Source: Phoronis australis (taxonomy: Eukaryota; Animalia; Phoronida). From it: 64,000 bases of DNA. Below, one piece after another: positions 1,794 to 51,751 of the stretch. Position 1 is the first letter of the stretch. Every line of letters starts with the position of its first letter. The notes beneath the pieces were generated by a model, which was not told where the DNA came from, did not search any database, and saw only the letters and a list, made by a program, of their open reading frames with translations. The stretch spans positions 62,001-126,000 of the forward strand of contig NMRA01000292.1 in assembly GCA_002633005.1 (NCBI GenBank). The letters run 5' to 3'. The translations under genes and the position numbers were made by a program.

Positions 1794-8086
<6,293 letters not shown>

Positions 8087-10304: not shown

Positions 10305-12149
10305 GAGAACATGTAATATATACGTAAAACCGTAACACAGAGTTGTGTTTGAAAGAGGTTTTCATACATTAATATACAGCTACATTGGAACTTCTATAAA
10401 CAACACATAGTGACTAAATTAGATGTCAATAACTTTTAAAACATCGCTTATGATCCAGGGCACGCCGAACTACTTTACTCGAGGAGTAACACACTAACCG
10501 GGCGACTGATATTCGCGGAAATGCGACAATTTCGATAGTTGGATTGTTGTTGTAGTTGTAAAGGAAAGCACGCACGAGAACACAAGATAGATAGCTTTGT
10601 AGTGAACGAGGTAGTGCAAACAGTGGATGAGGTTGGTCGGTGGCGAGAGCTATGATTTCATTTTTATGACTGAGGAAAAGCTAGCTAGAATAGTTATGTA
10701 GTTACTGCAACCAAAATTCGTCCAGCCTGAGATCGATCCAAATCCTCAGTTTGGCTATCACCATATTTGCACTTATGTATATATTTTATGATTTGAGTTC
10801 TAATAAAGACTGAAATTGAACTAATGACGCGAGTAGTAGTGTTTGCTGTGACCGCATTTTGGTGTAGCTGTAATCTGGAAAAGTCGGGGATGGGTAACTG
10901 ATTTCTAAATTGTTTTGATACTTCGTTTAAAACCCGGCAAAATAAACCCTAACTCAGTGGTAAGAAAAAAAAAACAGACAGGAATATTAAAAATAAAGTA
11001 ATGAAAACAGGTATGAAATATATTTAAAACCAACGTTGGGATCGAAGAGGTCCTTTGTCAAGATCAACGCAAATTAACTTTTTAGTCTTTTTGCAATATT
11101 TAAAATGTACCTAGTTAAATTACTCTCCACATTGCAGGCTTTACTTTGTGCAAATGTCAAAGAAAACCAATTTGGGTGTAATAACAACCACCATTGTTAA
11201 GAAAGTAATGCTAGCTATTACCTTCGACTTCATTAGCTCAGATCTACATCAATGCAAAGGGCGTGTTGAATAGCCATTGTAAAAGTTGTCTGGGGCTTAG
11301 GGAACCGGAGCGGTAACCAATGTAAGCGAGAAATTCTCCACATGCTGACCTTGACCCGGAAACTCGGTTCCCTTGATCCGATAGGGAAACTAGTCACAAG
11401 CTCGTTGCATAGAGACCGGTAGAAAGGCGCAATGGCTTAAATGTGGCTCTATGAAGGATGTATGCTTTTTCTTGTGACTCAAGGTTTTTGTGGCAGACAT
11501 TTTTTGTTTTGCGATGTACCTGTACTAAATCGTGAATAGAAATTGCAGGTTAACATGGTAAAGCTACACAAGTAGCATGTGTAACAATAACTACTAGCAT
11601 TATCACCTACTTTTTGCCGCAAATCAGTTCTAGTTTTGGTCTGTTTTGCAGAACCAATGCGTGAACCTAACTCATTGGACTCAGTAAGGACGGCACCGCT
11701 GTCTCCAAATTTGTTTGTCAACTAATAGATGCGTTTCTCGTTCCCAGAGCACATTCGTTCCCGAAATGTCTTTAAACTCAAGACCAGTCTGTGTAATAAC
11801 TGACCAATATTCATGGCTTTACAACTCTTTCTCTCATTTAAGAGAAGCAAGCAATTTTCCAAAAAAATAATTCCAAGTGCGTTTTAGAACATATTTGAAT
11901 ACTACGATACATTTAGAAATAATTTTGGACGGAACAGTCACGACTTACGACTATTACCTCTTAATCAGAATGGCTGATATGAGGCAAATGTGAAAGACTC
12001 GTGCTTTGCCTTGTGAGAGAAGAATCGAGGAAGTGACGAGCAGTTGAGTTTTAAAACTAAACGAAATATGCTTTGACATCAGCAGACATTCAAAATCTTT
12101 ACAAACAAACCGTAAAAATACCTGGTGAGCGTTCCAGGCTTCTTTAATT

Positions 12150-13568
12150 CACGGGTGAGAAACAACATGACCGCCGGTCCTCTAAACAGGACCTCCGGGG
12201 ATCAAAGGGGACCGCCGCACCAGAAAATGGGACTGACGCACCCAAAAACATGACCGCCCCACCACAAAACAGGACCGCCGGGGACTAAAACCGCAACAAC
12301 TAACAGGCTAAGATTTATTACCGTTAGGCCTACACAGATCATACAATGGGGCTATATACGTATGCATATGCAGGTCTTGTGCCGATTAATCCACCGAAAT
12401 CTTTTGTGAGCAACAAAGGACACTTCGCTTTGTAATACGCGGCGCTTTTGAGTTTTACTCATCACCAGGCTCCCGGCTGCGGTATGTGACTTATAAACAG
12501 TTGAAAGGTCAACATTTAATAAATCTAACACAAAACAACCTCGTTGTACGCTTTTGAGCTAAATAATTATAATTTTATCCACTGCATAAGTTTTAGAACA
12601 AAATGAAAATCATTTTCTCCAATTTGACGTTTAAAGTTAGTCAAGTAAAAAAACGGACGTTCTGGTTCTCGGGTGAAGCATCATCATACTAGCTGCCTTT
12701 GTGCGGCAAAGCTGTACATTAAATGTACAGCTTTGCGCCGATGTGGGTAAAAAACTGAACATGTAAAATCTTTACCCGGCGAATTTTTTTTAACGACACT
12801 CTTCCTTGAGTAAACTAAATTATTTCATCGGCGCTCGAGAGAAATTGTCGTTCTGTCGTTATTCTGCGTTCTCTTAAGTCGGCTTACATTGGCCGGTTCC
12901 TTTTCCCCCGATTCTTCAGTCAACTGTCCTTCTACAAGGTTGCGTACCTGGCACAACAAATTATCGAAACTGGTTTCATTTCGTTATAAGTTTTCAGTAC
13001 TTTAATACCAGCAAACCGAATTTCATAACAAACCTTGTTGCCGCCAAGTTGTCATCATCTTTCGAAAGATGTCTCAAAATTTTTCTGAGGAAATGGCGCG
13101 TGCACATGTCACTTATTATTACAACAGTTCATTAGATTGTTTTTCACTCAAGCGGTTGCAAACTGCAAGGTGAGTGTTGGTTGACGCCTAGATTTTGCAT
13201 GCGCCTGCATCGGTCGCGCGCTCTACTACATGTTGATGTAAGTTCCACGACGAGGTGACGAGCAGAACTACCCGGGCTGTGGGCAATGTCGGGGATGTAA
13301 CGGAGCTCAACAACGCAAGGCTGTCAAGCTTTATTTTGGCGATAGTCTTTACACAGCTATCTGACCGGTTACGTCATAACCCGCAGTATCACACAAAGGC
13401 CTTAACTACTCAGTCCCCGGCGGTCCTGTTTTGTGGTGGGGCGGTCATGTTTTTAGGTGCGTCAGTCCTGTTTTGTGGTGGGACGGTCATGTTTTTAGGT
13501 GCGTCAGTCCTGTTTGGGTGAGTCGGTCCGATTTAGAGGATCGGCGGTCATGTTGTTTCTCACCCGTG
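12150..13568. mobile_element. Non-autonomous DNA transposon with CAC...GTG ends and 5-bp TSD (Transib/CMC-like)
   Basis: TIR CACGGGTGAGAAACAACATGACCGCCG at both ends, mirrored subterminal repeats (12150-12287 and 13411-13568), and TAATT on both flanks (12145-12149, 13569-13573). Confidence 0.8.
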
Positions 13569-13764
13569 TAATTGGAACAATACAAGTTCCATGTTGGGAT
13601 TAATGAATGGAACCTGGATGTACACCTGCATGTAACGGTTCCTAGATATACATTATACGCTTTGGCAAGCTTCTCTAAATCAGCCGGGAGAATAGGTGCA
13701 TTAACGCGGACATTATCGTTCTTGCAGCCGACAAATGCATGCATTCTTATTCTTCAAGCCATGT

Positions 13765-16700
13765 TCACTGAGGTTCTCCCTCGGGGAATACGTCGTTGCA
13801 CAGAGTTTCATTATTGCTATTCAAGTGGTGATAGATTGCTTCCATCCGAATACCATGTTCAACACCGTACGTCTGAGGTCCTGGAGGTACTAGATGATTG
13901 TATCGACCAGAATGGACCACAGCAACACGGGCATTGTCCTCTGCGTCGCCGACCAATCCTGGAGATCCAGAACTTCCAAAGGTCATTTTCTCACTCGCGT
14001 GGTACAGAGCTTCATCCTAGACAAAATGTACAATTCTCATGCGAAAACTGATGGAAATAATCCCAGCTAACATTCAAACAAATCATACGTGTAACTTGGG
14101 GTTTGCATTGCGACACAGATTTACGGGGATTCTTAGTTTCATCAACTACATGTATGTCAGGATTGATTCTGAACTTAAATTTATTCACGGTTGCCAGGTT
14201 AGTTTACACAATTAAAATTCCACGTTGTCTCATCTAAAGCCACACTGCTGTTGGCGCACATCATGTAACTGACGCAGTCATCCATTCACAGATGCTGGGA
14301 ATGTCCGAGAGGGACATTTTCAAGCTCTGCCAACAGGGGCTGCATAAACTGAATTTGATTGATAGCATGAGGGCACAATGTATTAGTGAAAATAATGAGT
14401 GTAAAAGATTCTGGCCAGATGTCTGGGATTTTGAAAAGGTCCTAGTTTTCGACAACCCCTGATGAAAAAGCGGAAAAAATACAAATAACAATCAGATCTT
14501 TAATGAATGGGTTACATCTTAGCTTTTACTGTTGTTTATAGTTTTCATTATTTGTTCATCTAAGCAGTGCAAATCGAACGTAGGTGGTGAATTGTGAATA
14601 CTTATATCTATCAGTATTTGTCGAGTCAACTGCCTATTATAATCAGGAGGTAACAGGAGAACTAAAACAGGACTACAATCGTAGATTTGTTATAGTAACT
14701 TACCTGGCCCGCCAGAGGATGGTGTACTACTGAGCACAGCATGTCCACTACTTTGGCTTGACCATCAGGGTGACCAGCGATGTGTATCTTCTCGTGTCTA
14801 CCTAACTTTGTAAACTTAGTCAAAGCTTGGGGCAACTGACTGTTTGGTTCAACGAGGAGCTCTAGAACGGCGTAATCCAGAGCTCTGTCATAGATGGCAA
14901 CAGAATTGGGGGCAAGATGGACTGACCTCATGCTCGCTTCGTCACCGTACTGGTACGGTCTGTCAAAGTGGAATAGGCATAATCGTGTATTTTGCCTTCT
15001 TCTTTCTTCGTCTGCAAACAATTTTGAAGCAATCAAGTGAAACAACCGTTGTACTTCAAATCTTTTTATCCAAGAATTGAAAACTAAACTTGCAATCTGC
15101 TCAGTCTATCCGCGGATCAGAGGAAAGACCTATAACTTTGATATCATTGAAAACGTTTCACATTAAAGGGAGTTGTATTTAGAGTGTATAGATCTAGAGA
15201 CAGTTTGGCTAAATGACACTTGTTTAGTTTAAATGTCCTTCAAGGGAAACTGGCTTGAAGCAGCAATAAACCGTCGAAGAAACTAAGATTTGATTTAGAC
15301 CACTTACCGCTAAAATATATTCTCAACTTGTTCCCGACACAGATGGGAGGTGATTTTTGTCTTGCAAAGAACAGACACCTCGGTAATCCTCGAGGCCGTG
15401 CTCGGTGAATAAAATGACACGCTAATGGCAATTCATCTTCTACTCAATATTATGAGTACATTGAACAATTTGAGACCAATTTATTCCAAAACGGTAAGTG
15501 GTATTATTTTTGTGGCGGAAGGTGGTTTTATAGCCGCTTTGAAAGTGTAGGATTTCCAAAGCTGGGTTCTGGATCGGCAGATACGCAGAGAAGGTGGTCA
15601 TGCTAACTTGCTTGTGGATGTTGGCAGTGTTGGAAGTCATATTCATAGGGCAGAACAACAGGCCAGGAAGGCAAACATTATTGGGGGGAGAGACACAAAG
15701 CAATTCGACTTCGCCAAACTACCCCCACCCCCTCCTTTTGCCACCACTTCCGCCTCCACCCTCCGTATGCCGCCATATTTGTACCGAACCCCCCCCCCCC
15801 ACATAGGTGGGGAACTGTCCCGGGAATGCAGCCATCAGGATTTGAGTAACCGTGAACGAACAAAGTTTTGCAGAAAATAAGAATGGGCCTAAGGCCAGCG
15901 CACAGACAGGTAGCTGGGAGCTGCCTCACGTAATTGTAGCTGAGATCTCACAGTGTGAAAATACAAAATTCGATGAACTGAAGCTAGTCGCTGGTCAGCT
16001 CAGCTATGATTCACTTAAGACAGGCAGCTTAGCACGAACCTATCCTTCTCATGCGCTGGTTCTAAGGTCAAAATTAGTTTTATAGGATCCAGTTTCGGGA
16101 AAAGTTCATTTCAATGATAATGGTCACTCCTTTAATGAATTTTTGGAAAGGTCCCGAGGTCCCCGGTATAGTGCCTTTGGGCTGTTTCAAAATCTCTTGT
16201 TGAAAAACGGCCGGTAGTCCAGTTTCTGGTAGCTAGGGAAAATGATGCAGTGTGTCCCAAAAAATGTACACAATGTCTGGGGTTCAAATTCAATTCCCAT
16301 GGATCACTGAGATTCTACGCGGGTCTACTGCATGATTATACCAGTCAGTCATGACGGCTCCGTCTGTGTAGTATGCACGGGAATGGCAAGCAAACAATTC
16401 AGTTTCGAAGAACTAAAATTTATTGCGCAATACTACTGAAACTAAAACCATCAAGGAAGTGCAAAGACAACCTTTCCAAGTTAATGAGCAATGAGTTTAT
16501 TTTTATTTATTTAAGGACTTAAACTTCTTTTTCGATGTACTGTTTGTGACTTTAAACAATAAATCTAGTTCCTACGTCAATAAAGAATTTTTCACATTCA
16601 CCAGTATCCTTGAGACTTAGTGTAGGCCTACTTTGATATTTGGGCATCTGATGAAAGATCGAATTTTCTCAATGTCAGCCTGCAACTAAGTTCAGTGGAG

Positions 16701-19275
16701 CATCGTCATTTCTTACAAGATTTGCTTCTAATTGTTAAAAATCATCTATCAATCAGTCGATTTTATCATACATAAACATGTAAATCAGAAACCAACAATC
16801 GATTCCATAATTTAATGACTTAATTTCTTTTGGATCTCTTGTTTTGGGAGTTTAAATGACAAATCTTGTACCTACCGGTAAGTCAAAAAGCAATACATTT
16901 ATTGCCACTTGAATTGTGAGTATACTTTTGGGAACTGTCCAAATTTCATCAATGTCTTTAGAGTTATTTTAGGTAGGCAAAACCCGTCTAAGTGTACTTC
17001 ACTATTTGGGGATCGGATGATAGAAAATTTTCAAACTTCAGACTGCAACTAAATTCACTGAAACATCACCAATTATTACAAAATTACCTTCCAATTGTCA
17101 AAAATCATTTATAAATAATGTCGATTTTCGTAGATACATAAATCAGAAACCAACGAATTTGTTCATGAAAATGGAATGTTATAAACAATTTCCGCAGGCA
17201 TGTTCGCAGATTTTTGATGGGTAACCGGGGGAACATGAGTTAAACTTGAACTCCAAGGAACGCTGAAATCTTTGTTTATTTTTGCGAGTACTTCGAGTAC
17301 CCCCGTTCGACACTGCACACGGTCATTACAAATCGTAGCCCCGAAAGTCTTTTCTACATGTGCGAATTCCTTACAATTCACGAATAGGGGTCTTCACGTT
17401 TTACAAAATTTCATCTTTTTGATGGCAGTCAATCCCATTGTAATTTTCACATTTTTGGTTGTTCGGGTAGAATGTCTTGATACTGCTGTGCTGTGCACGA
17501 ATGTTTTGTTTTTGGATGAATTTTGGAATCTTAACTTGGCTGTGTCGGATTTACATGCATAGAAGGACAAAAAGACAATTCCCCGAACCGCCCTCCCCCC
17601 TCCGAGAGAGGGTCTCGTCTGAAACGGGACACCTTAAGACGAAAGACTAAACATCATCAAGCGTGGAAAAGAGTGGCAGTTCATTCCATCGTCGTGTGAC
17701 CCTGCAAGAAATGACCTTCCTCAACATAAAAGCCGGTTGTACGATTTCACAAAGAAAAACAAACAAAAATAGAGATAATAGATTCCAACATTGGACCCTC
17801 TCTCGGTAAGCGGACCCTTAAGAATTTGTCAATAAAACACGAAAAGGTTAGCTGGCCCCTTGAATGTCATCAATGAATCCCCTTCAAAGGCTGGGCCCCT
17901 AAATATGAAAATATCTATATTTTCGAATACCCATAAATGCGCAGAAATTCAGTTCATCAATTTTTCTCAAGTGATATACAATTTTCTAGAAAAAAACGTA
18001 CGGAAAAATAGAGCGATAGTTGTCTCCGTCATCCCTTGCCAGAGAGGGGTCTCTGGAAAAATACAGTTTTGCATTCGTAAAATTGTGTTGATGAATTTTA
18101 AAATCCAGTGCCGGAACTGCTTCGCTCCGCAAAAGCTTTGTTTCACAAATTTTCTCGATTTTTCGAAATACATGAATGAATATGTGCACGTTTTCAAATG
18201 CGTTTAGACGACCTATTCTGCATAAAACGGAGACGCTCCCAACAATTAATGTCCTGGCCAGGGCCCTCAAAGGGTAAACCATGCACTGATACTGAGTTAT
18301 CAAATGTTCTCTTGGATTTTCACTCTTATCTGTATTCGTGGTCTTTCTTTTCTCGACTGTCGCCGGCCCTACGCCTACGTCGGTTGTCACGGCTTAACCC
18401 TAACGCCTGCATTTTTTTGGGATGAAGCACGTGCTCCCCGGCCACCGCTTCTTCCGGCCCGGAACAGTACAGATGTTGTCCTCAGTACTTACCAATGAAG
18501 TTAATCGGGAAGCGTGGCCCGTTATTGCAGCTGAAGCGATCAGTTTAGAGGAAAGGATAGAGAATGGCGTTTACGTGCGCAGTGTACTACGACAGATTTA
18601 CGATAGGGGCTAGTACCAATTGTCGTCTACGGGACAATAAGGATGTTGTCAAACCAATGTATTTCACAGGAAGGACGTTTAGCGCCTCAGTCGAGCGATC
18701 TGTCTCTGCAGTGAAGTGGCTTCCAGGTTTGAAACATTAGGACAGTTGTATGACCAAGCGCGCAGCATCAGCTGTCAATCTTCAAAAGGTGCTACAGAAG
18801 GATCACATGTGAATTCATTTTAAGTAACTTATGTTGATCAAATCATCTTTAAACTAGAGTTATTTTCTTATGATTACTCTGGTTGGTGCAGGAAATTTTT
18901 TTTTTGTTTTCCACAAAAGAAAAAAAACGAAGCGTCACAGGCTGAATGGCCGTTCAGCTATGTTAGCCGGATTCGAAGCCACGTGTAGGATCTTAATTGA
19001 CAACACTCAGTTTGGTCCGAAATATTTCTCCGTCACTTATCATATTGTTTACCTTGAGTTAGGGCGGCATCTTCACGCACCACGTGGTAGTTTGTCATCA
19101 GATAACGAGAGCCAACTCGAAAGCCTGAACCACTGATACCATTTGACCACGTGACTTTGGCTACAGACGAGAATGCCTGTGTCAAAGATCTCATGAAGTG
19201 CCCAGATACTGTGTCCTTGCCTCTCTGACAAAGTACTTCAGAGTCTTGTCCAAGTGCGGATGTGCTCACTTTCTG
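13765..19275 (-). CDS. FAM111-like serine protease domain exons
   Basis: 19275-19053: SGSGFRVGSRYLMTNYHVV (His). 15011-14704: LDYAVLEL (Asp) and IAGHPDGQAKVVD. 14016-13765: TFGSSGSPG (Ser), VAVVHSG, EHGIRMEAI...DVF. Motif order and spacing resemble the FAM111A/B protease domain. Confidence 0.85.
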
Positions 19276-22200
19276 CTAACAAGAGAAATCAGTTATATTA
19301 AAGGCGAAGACAACCTTTTTTCATGTCACTTTTAGCAAAAATAAGGTTCGTTGATTATCCTAGACACATTTTTTACTTAATTACAGCTTTTCGTAATTTG
19401 ATTAATTTCTCGTCCTCTACTCCGGAAGTGACGTTTTGGGAGGCAAGAGTTTCGCGCCAATTTCTTTTCATTATAGTCTGACTGTGAGAGCTGTCGAGTC
19501 AGTCATTGTTCTACCTCGGCTGTGATAAATTCGGTCGTCGTTTGCTTTTGTTTACAAGTCAGTCAACATGCCACGCTGTTGCTGCGTGCCAGGATGTACT
19601 CATTATCGTCTCACACGCGCTTTGGGTACCTTGCGTCGCTTTCTGAAGATGACACACTTCGCAGTACTTGACTAACTCGTTCATGTGAAGAATGCAGCGC
19701 TACCCGTCCACGCAACGTACAAAGCAGTGGAGGGTTACCGAGTGTGTGGCAAGCATTTTCTGCTGTCAGATTATGACAGATATGTACGCTGAATTCATGA
19801 AGGTCCCTGCGAAACAACGCCTGAAGAAGGGTACCATACCGTCGCTGTTGATTGCCGGCAGTGCCCTGTCGCCAACCCCGAGAAGTGCGTTTTTGAAGCG
19901 AGAAGCCTCGCGAGCTGTGGCCACTATATACAGTGATTGAAGGCACTTCATCTACTGTCACCCGTGCCTCCGAACGTACCCCATTGCGTGCAATTCCGGG
20001 AACTAGCAGTGATTCGCCCTGTGTTGTTGTCTCTAGCTCCGGCAGAGCCTGTAAGCAGCCCTGCAGCGATGTTGAGTAGTGGGAGTGAATACAGGCCCAG
20101 TTCGACACCCAGTGAAGAGGACAGTTCTTCATCCAATGAACAGATCGGTGAGCCTATGTTTGATAAGTTTATTGTGGACTTGTATTGGAGCTATTTGGAA
20201 GGTGCCAGGTGGGTGACGAGAGAGTCACACGGCGGGATGTAAGCAGTTTTGGTGCTCAGATCACCCTCCAGTGGGACAGTTCTTCCTCTGTACGTGAGAC
20301 GATAATGAGTACAGCCCAGTACGCAGCAACAGCGTGGCATGTTGACTGACTCGTAAGAAAAAGCAAACGACGACCGAACTTATCACAACCGAGGTAAAAC
20401 AATGACTGACTCGACTGCTCTCACAGTCAGACTATAGAAAAGAAATTGGCGCGAAATTCTTGCCTCCCAAAACATCACTTCTGGAGTAGACGACGAGTAA
20501 TTAATTAAATTACGTAAAGCAGTAAATAAGTGAAAAGTATGTCTGGGATAATCAACGAACTTTATTTTTGTTAAAAATGACATGAAAAAAGGTTGCCTTC
20601 GCCTTTAAGCTCTCAAACAAAAAATCCAGTCGTGTTTTCAACGAAGTTGGTGCTAAAAATAGAAGTAAACAAATAAAACTGTGCGCGAGCACGCGCAGAA
20701 TAATAATCAGTAATTGGATCCATAAATGGGGTGACGCTTGAGTACTCAACCCGCCATGAATAGAATCCTACGCTGGTACCCTCACCGGTCGGGCAACATG
20801 ACCGGTTCGCTATAACCTTAAAATCCGCCGTCATCTTCAAAGAAACCATCCAGCTTCAACTGATGTCGTTCTCTGCAGATTAGCTTAGATAGTAAGGCTC
20901 GATATTGCACATCATAAACATGATTGTAATGGCTGCAGTGCCACAATAGTATTTTTTGTAAAATTGAAGAGATCCTGCGAAATAATGTAAACTATAAATC
21001 CGAAATGATGATAGTTCCTCAAAAGCTTGTTAGTACCTTCTGAGACATCGCTTAAATAGGTTGAATATGCATTGTCTTAACTGCGACGGTTTGGTGCACT
21101 TAAAAGTGCACCCATAGCCATAAAAAGTAAAAATAAACGCATCGTAAAGAAAACGTTAATTTGTTGAAAAACGAAAATGATCCGTTTCCAATTCACCTCT
21201 GAATGGATCCTGTCAACCGCAACCACATCACGTCTCTTTGGTACCGGGGATTCGTACAGCGCACCAATCACACCTAGAAAGTATAGGACGTTTCACCATA
21301 CAGATAGTTTTTTTAACCCAGAGTGCTAACATAAAGTACAGGGACGGTAATAAGCAACAAGAATATTGTATACGTGCACCAGAAAACGCAACCCTGTTAC
21401 CAGGAGTGAAAATACTTTCAGTATCAAAGAGCTCAGGTTGTAACATTTGTACTCAAATTCAACCTCGAAACTTTTTTCTCATTTCTACGAAATCAAGATA
21501 AGTGTCTTTTTATACTCTGCATGAGTACAAAGATTAGACCCTGGCCCAGGTCTTTCAAGATAAATCACGTGTTTGATAACGACTAGTTCTGACACAAGCC
21601 GGCGTTCTCGACATGTTTAGAATTGAAAAGATTGTTCTTCGCTGCATTTTTAGCTGTACAGCAAAATGCAGTATGTATACTAAATGCACGTTTCACAGTC
21701 AGTAAACTGTCAAAATATTATTCAGTACACTAAAGTTCACAGGAACGGAAAAGATCACTAGCTGGTCTGAGATAATCGAATTTGTTTCTATAAACCGCGC
21801 CACACGTGGACGATTAATTGGCAGAAAAAAGCAACACACCTCTTGGAATGACCACGTCTACTGGCACCTTCTTGTCGATACTGTTCTTACACGGCAGATA
21901 CTTCCCCAGCTTTCTTCTCGGGTGTAGCAACTTGTTAGCCGGAAACCATGAAGGTGACTTTTGGCTGCTGATGAGACAATGAGGGCACATGTACAGCATA
22001 TCGCATGGAGCACCAGGCCATTGTTTCAAGAGGTTAACAAGCTCGTTGTAGGCGTCTTCAAACTGCGACCACAAGGTCGTGACATTATGGCCCCTTACAG
22101 ATAATGCAACAGAAATGTCCCCTCCGTCCGGTCTTCTGGTTAGCAATACTTTGTCGTCATCGTCGTGTAAATAGACACCATTTTTCCAAACAATGACATC

Positions 22201-25200
22201 TTGTGCCAATTCCTCAAAATGGGTAAACTGTTGGTGCAATATGACGACAGCACGTTCAAAGAAACCAGTGGGGCATTGTACTGGAAAGTTGAATTTCACT
22301 TCATAAAGATACTCATTAGGCGAGGGGGCCAACCACTTTTCCTCCTTAAGAGCAGGTGGTTCGTCATTGCTAAGAAACCAAGGAAACAACAGGCATCTAG
22401 CTCCATCATTTTCTGACACAGTGAAACAAAGGGAAAATTTCTCCAAAAGATGAATCATGGTTCTGGACATGCCCTCGTCTGTAACAAAACGTTTTACTAA
22501 GCAGCGTAGAAGTTTAGACGAAATCCTACCATATTGCAATAAATTTTCTTTTTCCGTTTCAAAGATAATCTTGGTGAAACAGGCTCCGAACACAGAATTG
22601 GTATGGTCAAGTAACGTGTCCATGTCATGATGAAAAACTGACTTCAGAAAGTTTACAATCATTTCTGGCCTGTGGAAAACGCATTGCTTTAGTCGACTGT
22701 CGTCTTTGAACCACAAAAAACCTCCACACCGATGCTGATACGAAAGGAGGGCTTCAGCAGTTTTATATGCCTGGTCTGCTTGAAAGCCAATACTGGATAA
22801 CCCTCGACGCACAATATTGCAAAATTCGCCATACGATATGTAAAGTTTGGCCTTAACATCTTCTGCATTCATTCGGTCTTCTATCGACAGCCAAGAACCT
22901 GGAAGAGTCACGGCTTTTTGCTCGCAACATCTTATCAATGCACGACGAAGGTCAGAAATACCACTCATGGATGCACCAGAGCTTACTACAAACACGTGTT
23001 CAAATTGAATAAAATTTGACCGCAAACACTGCAATTCTCTGCTTTTCGCGGCATAGATGTCTTCGAGATATCTTGAATAACTCTGAAGTTCATCACTTTC
23101 ATCTTCAATGGCGGTCTGCAGTTTCACCTCAATGTTGCTCAGCTGAGATTGCACATAGTCTGCAAACCTGGTCTGTTGGTTTCTGATCTGATCTAAAATG
23201 TCTTTTCTTGATTTTCGAATTGACTCCTTGCTACAGCAGTCACTGTGAGTACAAACTACCATCAGTGTAGACTTTGGCGACATGAACAATATCGAATTCA
23301 CCCAACGACCGACCAAGTCATGGTACTTATCACTTGTATACTGATACAAATCAACAGTTAGCAGTGCAATAACCTCAGAGCACAAAAAGAAGTTGTGTGC
23401 CAACTCATATATTTGATGGCCACCAAAATCTGTGATATGCAACTTCAAGAAATCCTTTACAACCCAGATGTATTTCTGTAGTACATGAGTGCGATCACTG
23501 CTATCAGTTAAAGAAGACCTTCCGTCCTTCAACGTCAATGCCAGGCTAGTTTTACCAGCACCAGTTTCACCTAACAGTACCACCTGTTGTTTGCGAAGGG
23601 AACATTCAGTTTCTCGGAGATCTTTGAAATACTGGAATACTACTTTTGGCCCACAACTGCAAACTTCGAGTGGTGGTCTTGTTAATGGGTTACCGCTGCA
23701 CTTTATGTCTGTCAGAGAATCACACAGATCAAAATATAATGGAAGTTGGTTTATCTCATTATCACGGATGTCGAACACTTCTAATTTGTGAAGTTGTCCT
23801 AACTCTTCAGGTAATCTAGATATCTTGTTGGTTGAACAGTGTAACTCAATTAAATTAGTGCATTCACAAAGACTATTTAAGTCTCCAATCTCGTTGAATG
23901 AAAGATCAATATATTGCAGCTCCCCTAACTTCCTCATACCAGTTGGAATTGTCACCAACTTGTTGTGTGACACGTTTAACCTCTTCAGCTTTGTACATCC
24001 AACAACTGCTGTTATGTCACTTATTTTATTACCGGATAAGTAAACATCCTTCAGCTCTCCTAGTTCCCCTAAATCACTAGGAACATTCTTCAAGTTGTTA
24101 CGATTCACCTTTAGAACATGCAGCTTTGTACAATCAGCAGCAGCTGCAATATCAGTTATCTTATTATTGGATAAGTCAATATGCTTTAGGTCGTTTAAGT
24201 TCCCTAATCCAGTAGGGAGATCCGCTAACTCGTTGGACTTTAGCTTTAATACCTGTAGCTTTGCACATTCGACTACCGGTGAAATGTCAGTTATCTCATT
24301 GAAGGATAAATCTAGCTTCTTCAGTTCACTTAACTTCCCTAAGGAAGTAGGAAGTTCCAATAAATCGTTAGACTTAACCTTTAGCACCTGAAGGTTTGCA
24401 CATTCAATGACAGGTGCAATATCAGATATCTCATTGTAAGATAAATCAAGATCTTTTAATTCATTCAACTTTTTTAGCCCTGTAGGAAGATCCTCTAACT
24501 TGAGATACTTCACCTTTAGTACCTGCAATTTTGAACACTCAACAACAGGTGTAATCTGAGATATCTTATTGTGGGATAAATCGAGACTTCTCAGCTCACC
24601 TAACTTGCTCATCCCATTGGGAATACACTCTAGCTTGTTGTGATTCACCCGTAAGCTCTGCAGTTTTGCACATTCAACAACATGTGCAATGTCAATCACC
24701 TTATTGTGGGACAAATCAAGCTCTTTCAGTTCACATAAATCCCGTAACTTAGCAGGAAGACTAACTACTTTGTTACGATTCATCAATAACTCTTCGAGCT
24801 TTGTACAACCAACAATTGGTGTAATGTCAGCTATCTCATTGCTGGACAAATCAAGATTTCTCAATTCACCTAACTTGCGTAACCCTATAGGAAGACCTAC
24901 TAACTTGTTACGATTCGCACGAAGCTCCAAAAGCTTTTTACATTCAACAGCAGGTGTAATGTCAGTTACCTTATTGTGGGACAAATCAAGCTTCTTCAGT
25001 TCACTTAACTTGACCAACTCCGCAGGAAGGCCATTTAACTGGTTGTCATTCGCCTTTAAAATCTGCAGTTTCGCACATTCAACAACAGGAGTTATGTCAG
25101 TTACCTTATTGTGGGACAAATCAAGCTCCTTTAGCTCACCTAGCGTGGCTAACCCTGCATTAAGGCCCTCTAACTTGTTGTGATTCGACTTTAGTACCGT

Positions 25201-25743
25201 CAACTTTTTACATCCCAAAACAGGGATAAGATCAGTTATCATATTATCAGATAAATCAACGTCCATCAACTCACTTAAATTTCTTATATCAGTTGGAATA
25301 TCACTTAATCTATTTCCAGCTATCCATAACATTTGCAGATTTGTACATGCAGTAACTGGTGACAGGTTACTTATTTCATTGTAACTTAAATTCACTTTTT
25401 CCAGGTGTGTTAACAATTTAATATTGCTTGGGATGACTTGAATGCTATTTAAACAAAAATTCGCATATTTCAGGCTCAAAAGTGAGAATGTCTCCTTCGG
25501 AATTGATACCAGATTGTTTGACGACAAGTCAAGATGTACAAGGTTTTGGCAAGACGCCAGTCTTAGTGGAATTTGATCGTCACTTAAACCCAAATCGCAT
25601 AGGGATGCTGACTGAAGCTTCTCAAACTTCTCTACTGTCGCAGAGTCCGTCAGGTGAGCCTTAACTTCTGAGAAGTATTCCAAAGTTTCGGTTCTCTGCA
25701 AGGCTTTTTCTCCTTGCAAAGCTGCTGCCCATTTGGTTTCCAT
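13765..25743 (-). CDS. Roco-protease fusion: MFHAS1-like LRR-ROC-COR joined to a FAM111-like trypsin-fold serine protease (about 1587 aa, 5 coding exons)
   Basis: Minus-strand exons 25743-21840, 21273-21197, 19275-19053, 15011-14704 and 14016-13765, all GT-AG, junction phases 1,0,1,0 match, total 4764 nt open to TGA. Confidence 0.72.
19302..20604 (+). mobile_element. Kolobok-like non-autonomous DNA transposon with decayed THAP ORF
   Basis: TTAA|AGGCGAAG...CTTCGCCT|TTAA; about 310-bp imperfect TIRs; frameshifted THAP motifs MPRCCCVPGC (19568), YRVCGKHF and RLKKGTIPSL. Confidence 0.8.
21840..25743 (-). CDS. Large exon encoding LRR array + ROC GTPase + COR (MFHAS1/MASL1-like Roco)
   Basis: 1309-aa ORF with about 28 LRRs, P-loop GETGAGKTS, G3 DFGGH, FFL, G4 VCTHSD, a COR region and an MFHAS1-like C-terminal CPHC...FP...C segment; candidate splice donor AG|GTGTGT at 21840/21839. 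Confidence 0.93.
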
Positions 25744-26190
25744 GTGTTCTACCAGACCTGCACATTTCCTAAAGGAAACAAAGTGAGGAAGCTATGGCAA
25801 CAAATTCGCTCAAGACTCGACGCTCACTAGAGGGCGTCAGTGAAGAAAGCTCGAAATTAGAGAGATTGGGAAATCAAGCGTGGAGGCGTTTGTGAAATAA
25901 GGGCTCTTCAGGTATTTTGGGATAGGTTCTACAGACGCAAAAAATCCCGAAAAGAAGATCACGCAAGACTAAGTGAACTTATGCGAGTGAAAGGCGACTG
26001 ATTTCGCGATTATGCCCGGGCGCCTGTACCTAGCAAAATGGTGACAAGTGAAGAGCTCTGTTGGTGATTGTGTTGAATCATGGGATAGAATACAGCCGGG
26101 GCCCGAGTGGGTTTGTAAGGGTTCGATCGAGCCCCCGCGGAAAAGGTCCAGCCCTAGCCTATCCGATAGGATAAGATGGGATATAGATGG

Positions 26191-26222
<32 letters not shown>

Positions 26223-26236
26223 AACAACAACAACAA
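26191..26236. repeat. (ACA)n microsatellite
   Basis: Visible trinucleotide run with one interruption. Confidence 0.9.
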
Positions 26237-28989
26237 AATTGTTGCGGCTACTGGCACTACTAACCACAATCATAACCAAGTTCATGTTAATTTTAAATTT
26301 GCTTCCGATTCAAATTGCTTCACATAATCATCGGGCCATACCCGGCCAGAGTGATATTTGCGTAGATGACAGGATCGTGCAGACGATTAGAGGAGGCTTT
26401 ATGTTATTCATCGGCACTGAACGCGCGTGGTCGCTACATAGGGTAACAAGCGAATCTAAAAGTAAATGTCTCTACCTAGCCAAGCTATATAGCATCGAGA
26501 GAGCTCCCAAAAAGTAATGAGATGTGAATCCCTTAAATTGAATCGACCAAGAAATAAAACAGCAGAAAATGGGGATGTTATCTCCTATTTTGACTTGCTA
26601 ACATAGTATAAAAAGTGCATGCATTTTCAAATTTCGAATTGACAGTGATCGTCAAATATGTTGTTCATCCAGTGTCCACTTTGATTCAGTGGATTGGTGG
26701 AATGACATGCATGCGTGTAGACATGTGTGCGTTTCCATTCTTTTAAATTCAGTACACGCCGACGGTAAGTTCACTGTCTACACTGTCGCTTCTCAAAAAT
26801 CAGACATTAATAACCGTGTTTTCTTGCACTGGGAAATCCGTGCAATGCTGGCTACGAGCCTGGAATGCACTATCTCCGTTCCTCATGAAGACGAATTTTG
26901 TAACTGGGGTTAGCATATCTCTCTAGTCTCTATAATTATCATGAAGAAAATCACCTGACGAGGCCAGGTGTTTTACGACGTGTAGTTCACGTGCTGTGAC
27001 AACTGGACTACAACGACTACGCTGAACTCGACCGTCACATCGATACATGTACAAGCAAAATACTAATGACCATAAATTTTTACTGTACTTTGGTGTAATA
27101 GGCGTTGATCGAGGTAGTGGTTTTTAATGCTCTTGGTTTCGTACTCGTCGACATCACCTTTAATTTTCTATTCTTTTTCTCCAAGTGTGTCTCATCAGAG
27201 CTGTTTGGCAACACATAAGGTTTGCAAGCCGCAATATTGATCAGATAAGATAAGACGCAGGTATCACTTAAGTTTGCTCGGGAATTTTTTTTACACCGGC
27301 GTTTCTGATTGGGTGGTCGAATTCTCAACAGGCAGCGCTTTACGTAAACAAACTGGCATGTCTGATGGAGGAAGTGTAAATGGGGTCTGTTGTACAGACA
27401 AATTGATGCTTAAAATTCATGTTCAAGAAATGTGAATCCCAGAAAATTGTGGTTGCGCCTTTTCGGAGTGCATCTTTCTACTGTCGCTGACTTTTGTTTA
27501 CGTATTCATAATGTAGGAATAACCGTCACACCGTAGTTAAACCAGCCAGATGACGGCGTTTTTCATGCACGCACCAAGGGGGGGGGGGGCTCGAATGAAC
27601 CCCCCATTTGGCGAAGTGGGGAAAAAGGTCCGAGAAAATGAGACAAAATCCACTAAACAAGCACAAACGCGCAATTCACAGTGGTGCTCCCGTTTTTTTT
27701 AGTCCGCCCGCTTTTTTGTTACCAAAAGGGTCCACAACTCCAGCAATTCATGCCCCCCATATTGAAGGCTGGGTGCGAGCATGTGTTTATTGTACGTGTG
27801 TGCTTCAGGCACGCGTCTATTAAACATTACTGCAGAAACGAAATAATTGCTGCTGCGACACTTGACAAGCATAGAAATCGTTTGTAGTCCACCATTTTCC
27901 CACTTTGTTATATAGCTAACCAACGACTGACGAGGTTAAATCAACCAATGATAAAGCGCGTGCTACTGCGTGATACCTGCGTGCTGACTCGGCACGCAGG
28001 AAACCAGCCAGTAGCCAATGCGGCATACCAGCGCCCTCTGTCACGTACATCTAAGCACCCTACCGCTATTGTGTGACTGAATTTTGTCGCGCAGAAAGAT
28101 CATTTTTGTCCTATGACAATGAAAAATTCTTCTAAAACTGAAAAGATGGCCATTTTCGATAACACTCAAGATGGCGTCATCGTTTAATCAATGAATTCAA
28201 GAGAAATTTCAATTTCTTTACAATTACGAATATACCATATATTTATTCTATCACCATTTCTGGAAAGCGTGAAACCCATTAAATTTAGTAACTCTGCCTC
28301 AAAAAGTTAATCCACGGGCCAAATTTTTAGGAATACAAAAGATCGAGCTTTAGATAGATCAATGTGCGATCCGACATTTGTCTTATAAGCACTACAGAAA
28401 TGTATTAGTATTATCTGCTTCACAATATCCTTTTTACGATGATAATCGACAGTCTGTTGCATAACTTCAAGTATCTTGATTCAGCATACAAAAACATAAG
28501 CGCTTTCTGTAAAACTGGTTTTACTTAACTTACAAAGCTGGCTGTAAAAGCTTGCGCTGCTCTGACGTGGAACAATCCAACATGCTCTCCAAAACGAGCT
28601 GCATGACTAACACGTATAGCGAAGGTCAAGATCGATAGCAAATCTTAACTTTTGCTGTGTGGGGACAAACGGTTTTGCCGACTTTTTTCTTAATTTACGC
28701 GAGATTTTCTTAATTTAACCACGGAATATTCAACTATTTTACTCGAATCTTAGGGTAACTGCTTCCCTGATACGGGCATCATTTTAGCCAGGTCGTGAAA
28801 CTTATTGTTCAGAAATTGCAAATTGGCTCACGATAGTCTGACTATTGAGCAGGAAAGACCAGATGGGTAGTGTACTGGGTGTGGTGCTCAGCGAGATTAA
28901 TAAAAGTGGTTCATTATTAATTTAATTCAATGTTTGACATATTTCCATCCTTCAACACTACTGTAATTTTGTGACTCTCGAGCTATTAA

Positions 28990-30490
28990 AGGAGAAGGCA
29001 ACCTTTTTTCATGTCATTTTAGTAAAAATACGGTTCGTTGATTATCCCAGACACATGTTTCAATTAATTGCAGCTTCCCGTAATTTTATTTAATAATTGT
29101 GCCCTATTCCGGAAGTGACGTTTAGGGGTTTAAAAATATGCCGCCACTTTGTTACTGAGTTTACTGTGAGGATCTGTTCTACTGTTGTTTTCGTCCTGGT
29201 TTCCTGACTTTGCCGTCACCACTTCCCCTCGACGAGTATTCTACGACAAGCTAGGTTGTTAGAGAACTTATTAACGTTGGGTTTTGAGATCGTTTAGTTT
29301 GTAATCGCCGGAAAACGGGGCTGGTCGTGTCGGCAACCCATATCACAGACACGGTGACGTAGTGACGAGGATTTTTTTCACGAGCAGTCTGTGGGTGGAT
29401 ATATGTTTGAGCCCAAGTTTAATGAGGCAGAATAAGCACAGGCAGCTGTTGAGAGGTATGAGGCAGAGGCCGAGGACAGACGTGGTGATACGTCTTGGTC
29501 CAAATGCACGGTGCGCACTGTTATGTCAACCTCAATGGAATGCCTATGCTGTTCCCACTGGACGATGACTTGAGCACCCAAACCGCTTACATTCCGCCGA
29601 ATTTTATATTCCCTTGCCACACACCTGGCACCTTCTAAATAGCTCCAATACTTTAGTCAAGTCTACAATAAACTTATCAAAGTTTGGCTCACCGGCCTGT
29701 TCACTGGATGACGAACTGTCCTCCTCACTGGGTGTCGAACTGCCCCCGTATATACTCCTACTACTAGACATCTCTTCAGGTCTGCTTGCAGACTCTGGGC
29801 TGGAGACAACACCAGCATAGTGCAAATCACTGCCAGTTCCCGGAATTGCACGCACGGGTTTCGTTCAGAAGTACGGGTGACATTAGATGAAGGGGCTCCA
29901 GTCACTGTAGAGGCCACAGCTCGCTTCAAAAATGCACTCCTGGGGAAGCGATGGGACACTGCCGCGAATCAACAGCCTTGTTTTGCAGGAACTTTCATCA
30001 ATTCCGCGTACATATATCTTTCGTAATCCGACGGCAGAAAATGCTTGCCACACACTCAGTAATTCTCCACTGCTTTGTACGTTGCGTGGACGGGTGACAT
30101 TTTCACACGAACAAGCCAAGTACGGCGGAGTGTGTCATCTTTCGGAAACCGATATATAAATGGCATACCCAAAGTGCACGTGAGACGATAAAAGTGTATG
30201 TCTCGGTACGCAGCAACCTTGCGGCGTGTTGACTGACATGCAAACAAACGCAAACGACGACTGGACTTATCACAACCAAGGTAAAACATTGACTGACTGG
30301 ACATCTCACACAGTCATGCTGTATGAAAACAAAATGGCTTGACATTCTTAACCCCCTAAACGTCACTTTCGCAGTAAGGCATGAGTAATTAATAAAATTA
30401 CGGGAACCCTTATTAACAGAAGAATACGTCTAAGGTAATAAACGAACCGTATGTTTACTAAAAATCCCACTACAAAGGTTGCCTTCTCCT
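28990..30490. mobile_element. Internally deleted Kolobok-like transposon: THAP/transposase 5' relic on -, KolX/P2X7-like Cys-rich relic on +
   Basis: TTAA|AGGAGAAGGCAACC...GGTTGCCTTCTCCT|ATAA; same TIR family as 19302-20604. Minus strand RVCGKHF and DKFIVDLTKVLELFRRCQVCG; plus strand 29397-29553 GYMFEP...RRGDTSWSKCTVRTVMSTSMECLCC with an in-frame stop. Confidence 0.8.
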
Positions 30491-30679
30491 ATAATAAGAC
30501 TAGACAATGTATCAACCCCGGTTTTTCATGATTCCTGGATGTAAACATTAGGGATCCTCATAAAAGTGCTTTTTCGGAATGGCTCAAGGATTCCGATAAG
30601 TCTGAACACTTTCAAATTAATAAATATTTTATTCAAAATTAAAATAATATTCACGAATTTTTTAACCACTACACCACAA

Positions 30680-43252: not shown

Positions 43253-45106
43253 GTGTGCTTTCCTGAATAAAGAATCATCAGGTGAATTTTACGGAGAACC
43301 ACCAGGCATCTTGACAGATATTACAGTAGACGTGAAGAAAATCACAAAATTTACACAAGGGAAGCCCTCAGTAGTCAGGTCTGTCAAACGCAACCATGCT
43401 CTCTTCAGTATGATCGCACACGACAAATTTCCAAAAGATTTCCTAAATAATTAATACATGGTAAAGACAAAAAACTAAAATTGGTGCAATAAATCGGTCT
43501 GAAAATTTTATGCCATATGATGCTTTCTTCAGTATGAACACATGTGTCTACATTCAGATGATTCCAGATTAAGGGTTTTGTCGAATAGGGACTCGGGCAC
43601 CAAAAGATACGGAAATAACCTAAAACCGGGCAGGTGCCGTCGTATTCTTCATAGAAAGTTATTTCGCAAATTCCCTGAAGAAGTTAACTGCAACTGTTAA
43701 CTGCGGTCCATATCGTTTAGTTTGTAGTAGCCTCAAAATGGCTGGCCGGGAGTTGGCGTCCCATGTCACAGACACAGTGACGCCAGTGACAGAGACATTG
43801 CTCATAGAAGTGGTGAGCAAAACATTTGAGAAACACTGAAAGAAGAATTTGTGAAATAGCATGTGAGTGACGATTTAATTACACAAAAAGCAATAAATGG
43901 TTGATAAGGCCAAGCAGCATATTATTGGTTCCTATTGGAAGTTAATGCGGGGTGCGGTATTTTTTAGTTGCCTACTTTTTCATCAAAAAAATGAAATGAG
44001 TGAAAATGATATCCGTTTTTCCTTTATTTTTCTACTCCACGCAAACCAGTGGACAGTGAGTGGTGGGACTCTTGTACGTGCGGGGCAGTTCATCGCTTCT
44101 GCCGGTAGAGGCGCGACTCATTTCACGGCGCTATGATTTGTGCGCTGGCATCACTATCATTACTACTACTATGATCTAAGCTCCTTTTGTGTGAAGCAAG
44201 GCAATTACTGGCTGAAATAATATCGTATATTGTAACTAGTGATTTTTCAAACTGTATGGCTTCTGAAGTTGAATTTCTCGTTAAAACTTCGGTTAAGTCC
44301 ACCAAAGAAATGCAATAAAAATTAACCAAAAGGCGATGTAGATGGATTCGGTTTGTTGACCAGTAGGCCTAGGAAATTGGGACACGATACGAGACAAATG
44401 ACAGTGTGAGGACTAGGTTAATATCTGAATTTGTAAACCTCTCTCGTCTTAGTTGAACCCTCCCCCGTACTATTGGTGATAGCAGGGATGCGTACTGCTG
44501 CCGCTGTGGTGCATTTTGTTTTCTCGCAGACCTATAAATTTGAATCGCCTTTTCACCATTTTTATTTAACCGTAAATTTGATGTGCCAGTTCAGAAATGG
44601 TTGTCAAAATGAGGCGGGAGACTCAAAATTTTTTATTGATATAGGTTTTTGAACTCGGATAATACTTTGCACGGTATGAATACTGAGTGATTTTAAATGG
44701 TCGGCGAATTCAGCGAGAATTAGGTTCATTTTTTTGCAAATGAGCTATAAATGGGGTACAATTCTAAATTTTGGTATTAACGTGGTCGCACGTAGGATCG
44801 CAATTTTTCATATAAATCGCCTCAGGTTTGCCAACTTACCCTAAAACATGATTGCCTCCCCTGGCGTTAAAACTAAACGAGAGATTAGAGCTTTGTAATG
44901 TCTGAAACTAGTTGATGTTGACAAATAATCGGCATTAGTGCACACGAACTAAGACCAAGACTGGCCGGAACTCCTATGCTGTCCTTTGAAGTACTGCGTA
45001 TACTTTCACTGTTCACCAGAAATAAGTCTAGCGTAAATATGACAGTTTGAAAAAATATCTTACATGCTGAAGTTCTCTGATACGCACAATAGAGGTCAGC
45101 ACCGAC

Positions 45107-51100: not shown

Positions 51101-51357
51101 TTTTACAGCACGGTTGTTTTATTTTTGCTGCATTACCTCTTCATGAATATGGTGAGATGCAGGTAAAATATCTTACACAACACATTTAATACATTCCAGA
51201 GAGAGTCTGGCGACTAGTCAGTGGAGAACAGAACCATTTAAATTTCGCAAATCCACTGTACGAGCTAAGAGCCGATGACTCGATGGTTGAAGTGAACGAC
51301 GCCAGCACCAACACAGAGGAAGGCATGTACCCACTCACAGAGACGACACAGTTGTAG
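45107..51357 (+). CDS. Type I membrane Ig-superfamily protein: 2 Ig + FN3 + TM + short tail with NPxY and PDZ-binding motif
   Basis: Exons 45107(start uncertain)-45588, 46737-46882 (NVQRSQEGILKC), 47952-48078 (VGGVINVSC...FTW), 48555-48700 (NQGWYRCVGTNPIGS), 49471-49649 (WYQPQENNGKVLSY), 50044-50212 (NLNSTGTYQVRMYATNKFGDGP), 50714-50893 (TM VVFVVGASVVAALIVIPMVTWYCL), 51200-51357 (NFANPLY...ETTQL*). All junction phases match. Confidence 0.8.
48901..49085. repeat. Intronic minisatellite, about 31-32-bp unit
   Basis: About 6 copies of TTAGTGCACCTAGTGTTGTTTTGTTTCTGTCG. Confidence 0.85.
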
Positions 51358-51395
51358 TCGAGGACAATCACTTATTCATGGTCCTTCGTGCGGAA

Positions 51396-51751
51396 NNNNN
51401 NNNNNNNNNNNNNNNNNNNNNNNNNNNNNNNNNNNNNNNNNNNNNNNNNNNNNNNNNNNNNNNNNNNNNNNNNNNNNNNNNNNNNNNNNNNNNNNNNNNN
51501 NNNNNNNNNNNNNNNNNNNNNNNNNNNNNNNNNNNNNNNNNNNNNNNNNNNNNNNNNNNNNNNNNNNNNNNNNNNNNNNNNNNNNNNNNNNNNNNNNNNN
51601 NNNNNNNNNNNNNNNNNNNNNNNNNNNNNNNNNNNNNNNNNNNNNNNNNNNNNNNNNNNNNNNNNNNNNNNNNNNNNNNNNNNNNNNNNNNNNNNNNNNN
51701 NNNNNNNNNNNNNNNNNNNNNNNNNNNNNNNNNNNNNNNNNNNNNNNNNNN
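51396..51751. other. Assembly gap flanked by a 418-bp duplication (50978-51395 = 51752-52169)
   Basis: Run of N; the flanks differ by about 5 substitutions and both contain the terminal exon of the Ig/FN3 gene (second copy 51974-52131). Confidence 0.95.

Follow-up and report, generated by a model that had tools for sequence, protein, structure and literature searches.

Receptors of the NLR type (with a nucleotide-binding domain plus leucine-rich repeats) and of the wider STAND class (signal transduction ATPases with numerous domains) join a repeat sensor to a nucleotide switch and an effector that is activated by proximity. In the Roco proteins, a Roc GTPase domain is followed by COR. Human MFHAS1 (MASL1), a group-1 Roco, consists of leucine-rich repeats (LRRs), Roc, and COR without a kinase, has no effector domain according to the available parts of PMC6337361, and has been linked to toll-like receptor signaling (PMC4658032). 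Here we describe a gene of the phoronid Phoronis australis with the same LRR-Roc-COR order, to which a FAM111-type serine protease is attached in the effector slot. It lies on the minus strand of a 64,000-nt stretch of contig NMRA01000292.1 (assembly GCA_002633005.1, positions 62,001 to 126,000; in the following called the window).

Related designs are known from other lineages. The bacterial LRR-AP-GTPase-COR systems, for which a counter-invader role has been predicted, likewise combine LRRs, a Roco GTPase, and COR with a variable C-terminal effector, at least 24 types of which are reported, including trypsin and caspase (PMC8195603). The source data of that study contain one direct trypsin fusion and, for animals, Roco-caspase, Roco-Death, and lancelet Death/TRADD-N-trypsin combinations; no animal Roco-trypsin occurs in the parts of these data that were returned. 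Brown-algal “group 3” and other ROCO proteins of the SAR supergroup (Stramenopiles, Alveolata, and Rhizaria) place a PA-clan peptidase (IPR009003) after ROC-COR and belong to a different lineage, and about forty animal Roco domain combinations shown in a figure of the same work may include the present one (PMC11378527). A Roco protein with a C-terminal protease is hence already published for bacteria and brown algae, and the animal FAM111-type form is present, unremarked, in lancelet and oyster annotations. The earlier note on this DNA knew of no characterized animal protein of this architecture. Among the top-ranked, non-subscription papers listed we found none on an animal Roco-FAM111 fusion, but the architecture already exists in lancelet and oyster gene models, which rules out that it is unique to this gene.

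A spliced and expressed fusion gene

The gene starts in a long open reading frame (ORF) at 21814-25791 with an ATG at 25743. The LRR cap, the LRRs, Roc, COR-A, and COR-B are all contained in exon 1, which ends in a phase-1 splice donor, and the protease is assembled from the exons that follow (Table 1). All four introns are of the GT..AG type, in phases 1, 0, 1, and 0; the third (19053>15011) measures 4041 nt and the fourth (14704>14016) 687 nt. Ahead of the ATG exon, a further exon, coding or noncoding, is likely from the sequence. The transcript extends past the stop codon to at least 13637.

Table 1 Features of the Roco-protease gene in the window, in the direction of transcription.
Feature	Position	Strand	Details
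Probable splice acceptor, AG at 25770-25769	25744..25770	-	25 nt upstream of ATG, frame open; sequence inspection
Exon 1, coding part	21840..25743	-	3904 nt, residues 1-1301; ORF, Pfam, RNA junction
28 LRR units	23599..25542	-	residues 68-715; 22 and 23 aa alternating
Roc GTPase domain	23239..23583	-	residues 721-835; Pfam, above curated cut-off
COR-A	22387..22902	-	residues 948-1119; Pfam 41.7 bits, cut-off 35.3
COR-B	21847..22302	-	residues 1148-1299; Pfam 47.8 bits, cut-off 27
Read-through tail and stop	21814..21839	-	used if intron 1 is retained; ORF
Intron 1	21274..21839	-	566 nt, phase 1; sequence and RNA
Exon 2 (linker)	21197..21273	-	77 nt, phase 1 to phase 0; both RNA junctions
Intron 2	19273..21196	-	1924 nt; contains inverted-repeat element 19298-20608
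Exon 3	19053..19272	-	220 nt; linker end, alpha1-equivalent helix (1352-1364), His1390 (19086-19084)
Exon 4	14704..15011	-	308 nt; Asp1446 (14877-14875), GHPDG motif
Exon 5, coding part	13765..14016	-	252 nt; Ser1519 (13971-13969), stop codon

To RNA we turned with four public runs from two studies (X1 to X4), mapped on positions 12500-27500 at 88% likeness; the junctions reported here are taken from the 15 of 61 joints that were listed. None of the sequencing runs listed was recorded as RNA, and X1 was judged to be RNA from its spliced joints. The three raw-read runs were each covered to about 19% and give a low depth of 1-4x. The first junction, 21840>21273, was found in one X1 contig and two X2 reads, and the second, 21197>19272, in one X1 contig and six X4 reads with a single start. 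One X1 contig spans the third junction, 19053>15011, as does a second, diverged contig, with no X2-X4 reads in the listed row. X1 record 5 (669 nt) has 0 differences to the window over 21835-22263 (429 nt); to judge by its length and by the depth common to the two joint rows, it is probably a single contig that reaches from COR-B across exon 2 and into exon 3. For the fourth junction, 14704>14016, the sole instance is an X1 contig in which 14 letters are replaced in frame at the joint (701-14 = 687, the intron length), and its exact window version is not among the joints listed. Because these 14 letters differ across the joint, we assign this contig to a paralog or divergent allele, and the exon layout is therefore common to at least one such paralog or allele.

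Reads in the bins with exons 1, 2, and 4 are nearly all in one orientation, that of minus-strand RNA. Calculated per base of exon, the depth reaches ~2.2-2.6 on exons 2 and 4 and on the COR end but declines toward the LRRs; in intron 4 it is near zero. These data also correct the gene model. The earlier note had assembled five GT..AG exons with 4764 open nt from the letters alone; the frame is indeed open, but the exon-3 acceptor lies at 19272 and not at 19275, because the RNA joint skips 1924 nt, and this is the second AG of an NAGNAG. The corrected model has 4761 nt and encodes 1586 amino acids. From sequence, the bridging exon was ambiguous, with 158 frame-keeping AG..GT pieces in the span and a fair pyrimidine tract plus donor in 7 of them; it is the RNA that selects the 77-nt exon. 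Three of the four junctions named in the earlier note were thus recovered in RNA, the second with the 3-nt shift, and the fourth only in the variant contig.

The central claim, that LRR-Roc-COR and a FAM111-type protease are joined in one transcript, is borne out by the RNA junctions, the domains, and the intact catalytic triad, and confirms the fusion gene as real, spliced, and expressed. Transcripts that end at 21814, with the protease exons expressed from their own promoter, were not seen at this thin coverage. It is very unlikely that LRR-Roc-COR alone, terminated at the 21814 stop, is the main product and the fusion a minor isoform. Such a product would suit the donor GTGTGT, which is far off consensus, and the small number of raw reads over junctions 1 and 2 (all six for the latter from one start), but depth per exon base is similar on either side of intron 1, which fits an empty intron, there is no canonical poly(A) signal (AATAAA or ATTAAA) within 21000-21840, the X1 contig across the junction matches the window without a difference, and the same fusion occurs in lancelet models.

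Two repetitive elements flank or interrupt the protease exons. The element in intron 2 terminates ~25 nt ahead of the exon-3 acceptor and has ~315-nt terminal inverted repeats that are 90-92% complementary. This first copy has TTAA at both ends and a frameshifted THAP-like remnant inside; a second copy, 75% alike, lies at 28984-30496, and the element is highly repeated in the RNA runs. We take it to resemble a non-autonomous Kolobok-type transposon. The other element, at 12146-13573, has inverted termini and 21-nt subterminal repeats, and begins ~190 nt past the stop codon; the AATAAA that comes first after the gene (13335) falls within it.

The protease is of the FAM111 type

The catalytic triad His1390, Asp1446, and Ser1519 is intact. 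Exon 3 matches Trypsin_2 in Pfam (E 0.0013) and on its own has no PDB match under E 0.3, exon 5 has no Pfam match, and for exon 4 alone the best solved relative in a PDB search is FAM111A (E 0.0013). A profile built from lancelet domains and the window exons gives FAM111A 87 bits and other proteases at most 33 bits. HtrA or V8 identity is ruled out by this profile, and the FAM111-like serine protease that the earlier note had rebuilt from the downstream exons is upheld. The best named relatives are acorn-worm and lancelet FAM111A/B-like proteins with 26-31% identity (~28-31% for the nearest), and a quick tree of 136 rows places the domain in its non-bacterial clade (126 rows).

Trypsin_2, the triad, the GHP motif, the S1 residues, and the alpha1-equivalent helix are common to the protein described here and to FAM111A and FAM111B. 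In a mapping done by eye at about 28% identity, the S1-lining residues F538, H556, and E573 of FAM111A correspond to F1516, H1538, and E1556. The differences are the fusion to Roco and the absence of the ubiquitin-like domains UBL1 and UBL2 of vertebrate FAM111A/B, as only ~50 residues, without a death fold, lie between COR-B and the alpha1-equivalent helix. Because the two UBL domains are missing, we speak of a FAM111-type domain and not of a FAM111A ortholog. UBL-less FAM111-like proteins have been described in a coral and a lancelet, with no mention of Roc in the available parts of that paper (PMC9798293). The boundary of exons 4 and 5 (14704-14716, 14016) coincides with a loop, possibly a specificity loop, which most relatives have in a much longer form and which the variant transcript replaces in frame.

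The LRR-Roc-COR part is that of a Roco protein

As the earlier note had assumed, the long ORF encodes a Roco protein: the LRRs, Roc, COR-A, and COR-B all score above the curated Pfam cut-offs, and the order Roc then COR is present by both Pfam and fold match. The predicted Roc-COR structure (predicted local distance difference test, pLDDT, 90.9) has LRRK1, LRRK2, and the Chlorobium tepidum Roco as its top fold matches. Roc contains the P-loop GETGAGKT (725-732), DFGG (772), and THSD (832), followed by a long helical hairpin. The G1, G3, and G4 nucleotide-binding motifs are intact and, across 67 aligned sequences, nearly invariant, as are three cysteines at the COR-B end. The M. barkeri Roco has an arginine after G3 that is missing from the present protein and from 56 of 56 proteins with COR; it may be the dimer arginine of PMC6337361, and we draw nothing from it. 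The Roc fold is Ras-like, and no NACHT or NB-ARC domain (STAND ATPase) was found in the Pfam scan. No 19-residue window exceeds a hydropathy of 1.5 and there is no membrane segment, so a cytosolic location is likely.

The 28 LRR units comprise 25 found by pattern match and three read from double-length spacings. On the DNA level, they form a 135-nt double repeat in 10 copies, 64-77% identical to the reference copy, and the array is a recent internal expansion.

Relatives, trees, and origin of the fusion

Over the whole Roc-COR region, the best identity among 100 relatives (719-2291 aa) is about 30%. These proteins carry Death (22), glycosyltransferase (6), CARD (4), caspase (3), or Trypsin_2 (3) domains, the last all from lancelets. 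Among 91 relatives found with the protease profile (894-2550 aa), 21 combine Roc/COR with Trypsin_2, namely 12 lancelet, eight oyster, and one bacterial-type protein, and the FAM111-type protease was also found behind PYRIN, Death, ankyrin, LRR, Ig, and kinase domains. A profile search of cluster representatives gave 2401 matches; of the best 150 listed, 137 were new, and by our own profiles none of these 137 has Roc/COR and protease together, a result that is weak on distribution as the profile is lancelet-biased. Pfam, run on 32 proteins, assigned a weak COR-A together with Death and Trypsin_2 to one of them (P0195).

The closest counterparts are the lancelet models P0020, P0022, and P0025, annotated as “MFHAS1 homolog” or “uncharacterized”. 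They have the same order of LRR, Roc, COR-A, COR-B, and FAM111-type protease, no death fold in between, and an intact triad, and they belong to the same Roc-COR clade. They differ from the protein described here by an identity of only ~27-29%, far fewer LRRs, and a linker of ~110 aa versus ~50.

In the Roc-COR tree, the window protein lies inside a 30-row MFHAS1-like clade with a support of 100/98. Members of this clade have N-terminal LRRs and no kinase, group with “MFHAS1 homolog” models, the nearest relatives bearing that name, and hold all the effector types listed; another group of lancelet proteins and the fusions from oysters fall outside. The trees contain no SAR sequences, and no vertebrate MFHAS1 was knowingly included. 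In the protease trees, the domains cluster by host lineage rather than by carrier. By the approximately unbiased (AU) test, the Roco-protease fusions of animals do not all go back to one origin, a common origin being rejected on the protease tree (AU 6e-33; 26 of 47 rows, labeled by our own profiles and Pfam lists) and on the Roc-COR tree (AU 0.02; 7 of 37 rows), both computed under LG+G4 without mixture and with long branches included. As neither domain allows a single clade, the fusion was formed, or formed anew, on more than one occasion. For this gene and the lancelet fusion models, one clade was not rejected on Roc-COR (AU 0.25) and marginally rejected on the protease (AU 0.03).

P0168, the fusion of bacterial type, is placed among bacterial proteins and away from every animal row, both in the Roc-COR and in the protease trees. 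The bacterial and animal designs therefore look convergent, and descent from a bacterial Roco-trypsin fusion is ruled out by this placement.

The long branches in both trees, together with insertions that resemble transposons, located within intron 2 and at the 3′ end, could be taken as signs of a decaying fusion whose enzyme domains are nonfunctional. We consider this extremely improbable in view of the open 4761-nt frame, the intact triad and G motifs, the expression, and the confident Roc-COR fold.

A variable effector slot behind COR

Within the MFHAS1-like clade, the position behind COR is occupied by Death, CARD, caspase, glycosyltransferase, or protease domains. Proteins with LRR-Roc-COR and a caspase were found in lancelets (P0039 and P0043) and a bryozoan (P0091), and other lancelet members carry a conflict-type GT4 glycosyltransferase. 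In an acorn worm, a FAM111-like protease is fused to PYRIN (P0237).

Many unnamed gene calls of the clade end within a few residues of COR-B, where a Gly precedes Lys, Glu, Arg, or Gln. This phase-1 signature was found in 18 of 37 short-tailed versus 7 of 74 long-tailed gene calls (related rows, protein only). Such ends correspond to read-through of a phase-1 donor and match intron 1 of the present gene; a shared exon-shuffling socket is therefore suggested. The protease exons probably reached the Roco exon by shuffling at this phase-1 intron, which the clade shares. Since the genes are cut by simple gene callers at the intron after COR-B, animal Roco proteins probably have a wider range of effectors than has been counted.

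The earlier note had likened the protein to NLR/STAND immune systems with a sensor, a switch, and an effector. The comparison fits the family's variable post-COR slot; it is an analogy only, as the switch here is a Ras-like GTPase with COR and there is no STAND ATPase.

A role outside immunity, in signaling or protein quality control, for example as an intracellular protease under regulation during development or in the maintenance of the genome, appears quite unlikely. Low-level expression in all three raw-read runs and the work of vertebrate FAM111A at replication forks (PMC9798293) would be in line with it. However, there is no room for the vertebrate UBL domains, and four observations speak for fast evolution of the conflict type: no relative among the fetched proteins exceeds about 32% identity in Roc-COR, the LRR array is young, the variant transcripts are diverged, and the sister effectors are death-fold, caspase, and GT4 domains.

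Neighboring features of the window

By its relatives and neighbors, the gene is animal. A SETD8/KMT5A histone methyltransferase exon lies at 55613-55957 on the minus strand (E 2e-23 to human KMT5A). On the plus strand, 45071-50952 contains stretches resembling the exons of a membrane protein that has pieces of Ig-like character, a stalk rich in Thr, and a hydrophobic segment; three ORFs scanned within it gave no Pfam match. Two near-identical direct duplications, 5460-6114 (327 nt at 99%) and 50978-52169 (418 nt at 99%, around an N gap), are possibly assembly artefacts.

A possible sensor-switch-protease

As the likeliest mechanism, the protein may be a cytosolic innate-immune sensor in which Roc-COR dimerization pairs two protease domains and switches them on, a proposal whose chances of being right or wrong we consider evenly balanced. 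Its steps, all of which go beyond the gene structure and are inferred, would be as follows. The expanded LRR array would bind a microbial or damage-derived ligand. At rest, the protein would be monomeric and bound to GTP, its oxyanion hole being disordered; the ligand would promote GTP hydrolysis or release together with COR-B dimerization, and the ~50-residue linker would let the alpha1 helices pair, as in FAM111A. The activated protease would then cleave behind aromatic residues, its target being a protein of an invader or a host death or signaling protein.

FAM111A activity requires alpha1-mediated dimerization (PMC10920703), and the C. tepidum Roco is a dimer when empty or GDP-bound and a monomer with GTP (PMC5714945). 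The earlier note, according to which LRR ligand sensing and the GTPase dimer cycle could switch on the protease, did not specify which way the switch works; GTP would mark the off state, because its binding gives monomers in this bacterial model Roco. In addition, MASL1 toxicity rises on loss of GTP (PMC3995007). As for dimerization via helix alpha1 and sensor loop L4 of FAM111A, the same mapping by eye pairs V347 with M1354, and D1417-R1355 takes the place of the dimer salt bridge E415-K348.

Several points weigh against this proposal. The C. tepidum Roco, from which the monomer-dimer cycle is taken, has only ~14% identity to the window protein. The dimer interface is only partly conserved, since V351 of FAM111A is replaced by Thr and the E416-K345 pair is lost, and the lancelet fusion P0020 is without the D-R pair. 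Because FAM111A dimerizes by itself, with nanomolar affinity (PMC10920703), control by Roc-COR is possibly unnecessary. As to an immune-type expansion, tblastn found no second Roco or protease copy within the window. Finally, the GTPase activity of human MFHAS1 is very low (PMC6337361).

This low activity also favors an alternative in which an immune or stress sensor-protease is switched on by ligand-driven clustering, or is set free when the linker cleaves itself, Roc-COR serving as a scaffold. We regard it as unlikely but not negligible. FAM111A autocleaves just ahead of its protease domain without dimerizing (PMC10920703), a Death domain lies between COR and protease in many lancelet fusions, and the same protease sits on GTPase-free carriers, so that it does not rely on a Roc cycle. 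Nevertheless, the G1, G3, and G4 motifs are conserved here and throughout the alignment, and the COR-B-protease linker of the present protein is short and without a death fold.

The gene couples two modules of medical importance whose regulation is under debate. Should the protease follow the state of Roc-COR, then the monomer-dimer cycle in an animal Roco protein, which for LRRK2 and MFHAS1 has long been in question, could be monitored with a simple peptide assay. A wider and tentative idea, which we think somewhat improbable, is that invertebrates have an unrecognized NLR-like class of Roco immune receptors, in which Death, CARD, caspase, glycosyltransferase, or FAM111-type protease exons are exchanged at the phase-1 socket of one large LRR-Roc-COR exon, and that in the present, single-chain member a GTP/GDP dimer cycle directly gates the dimer-dependent protease, which would have kept an ancestral immune job of FAM111. 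The finding bears on the role of FAM111 before the replication fork, with its domain in the effector slot of sensor-like proteins here and in lancelets, oysters, and acorn worms.

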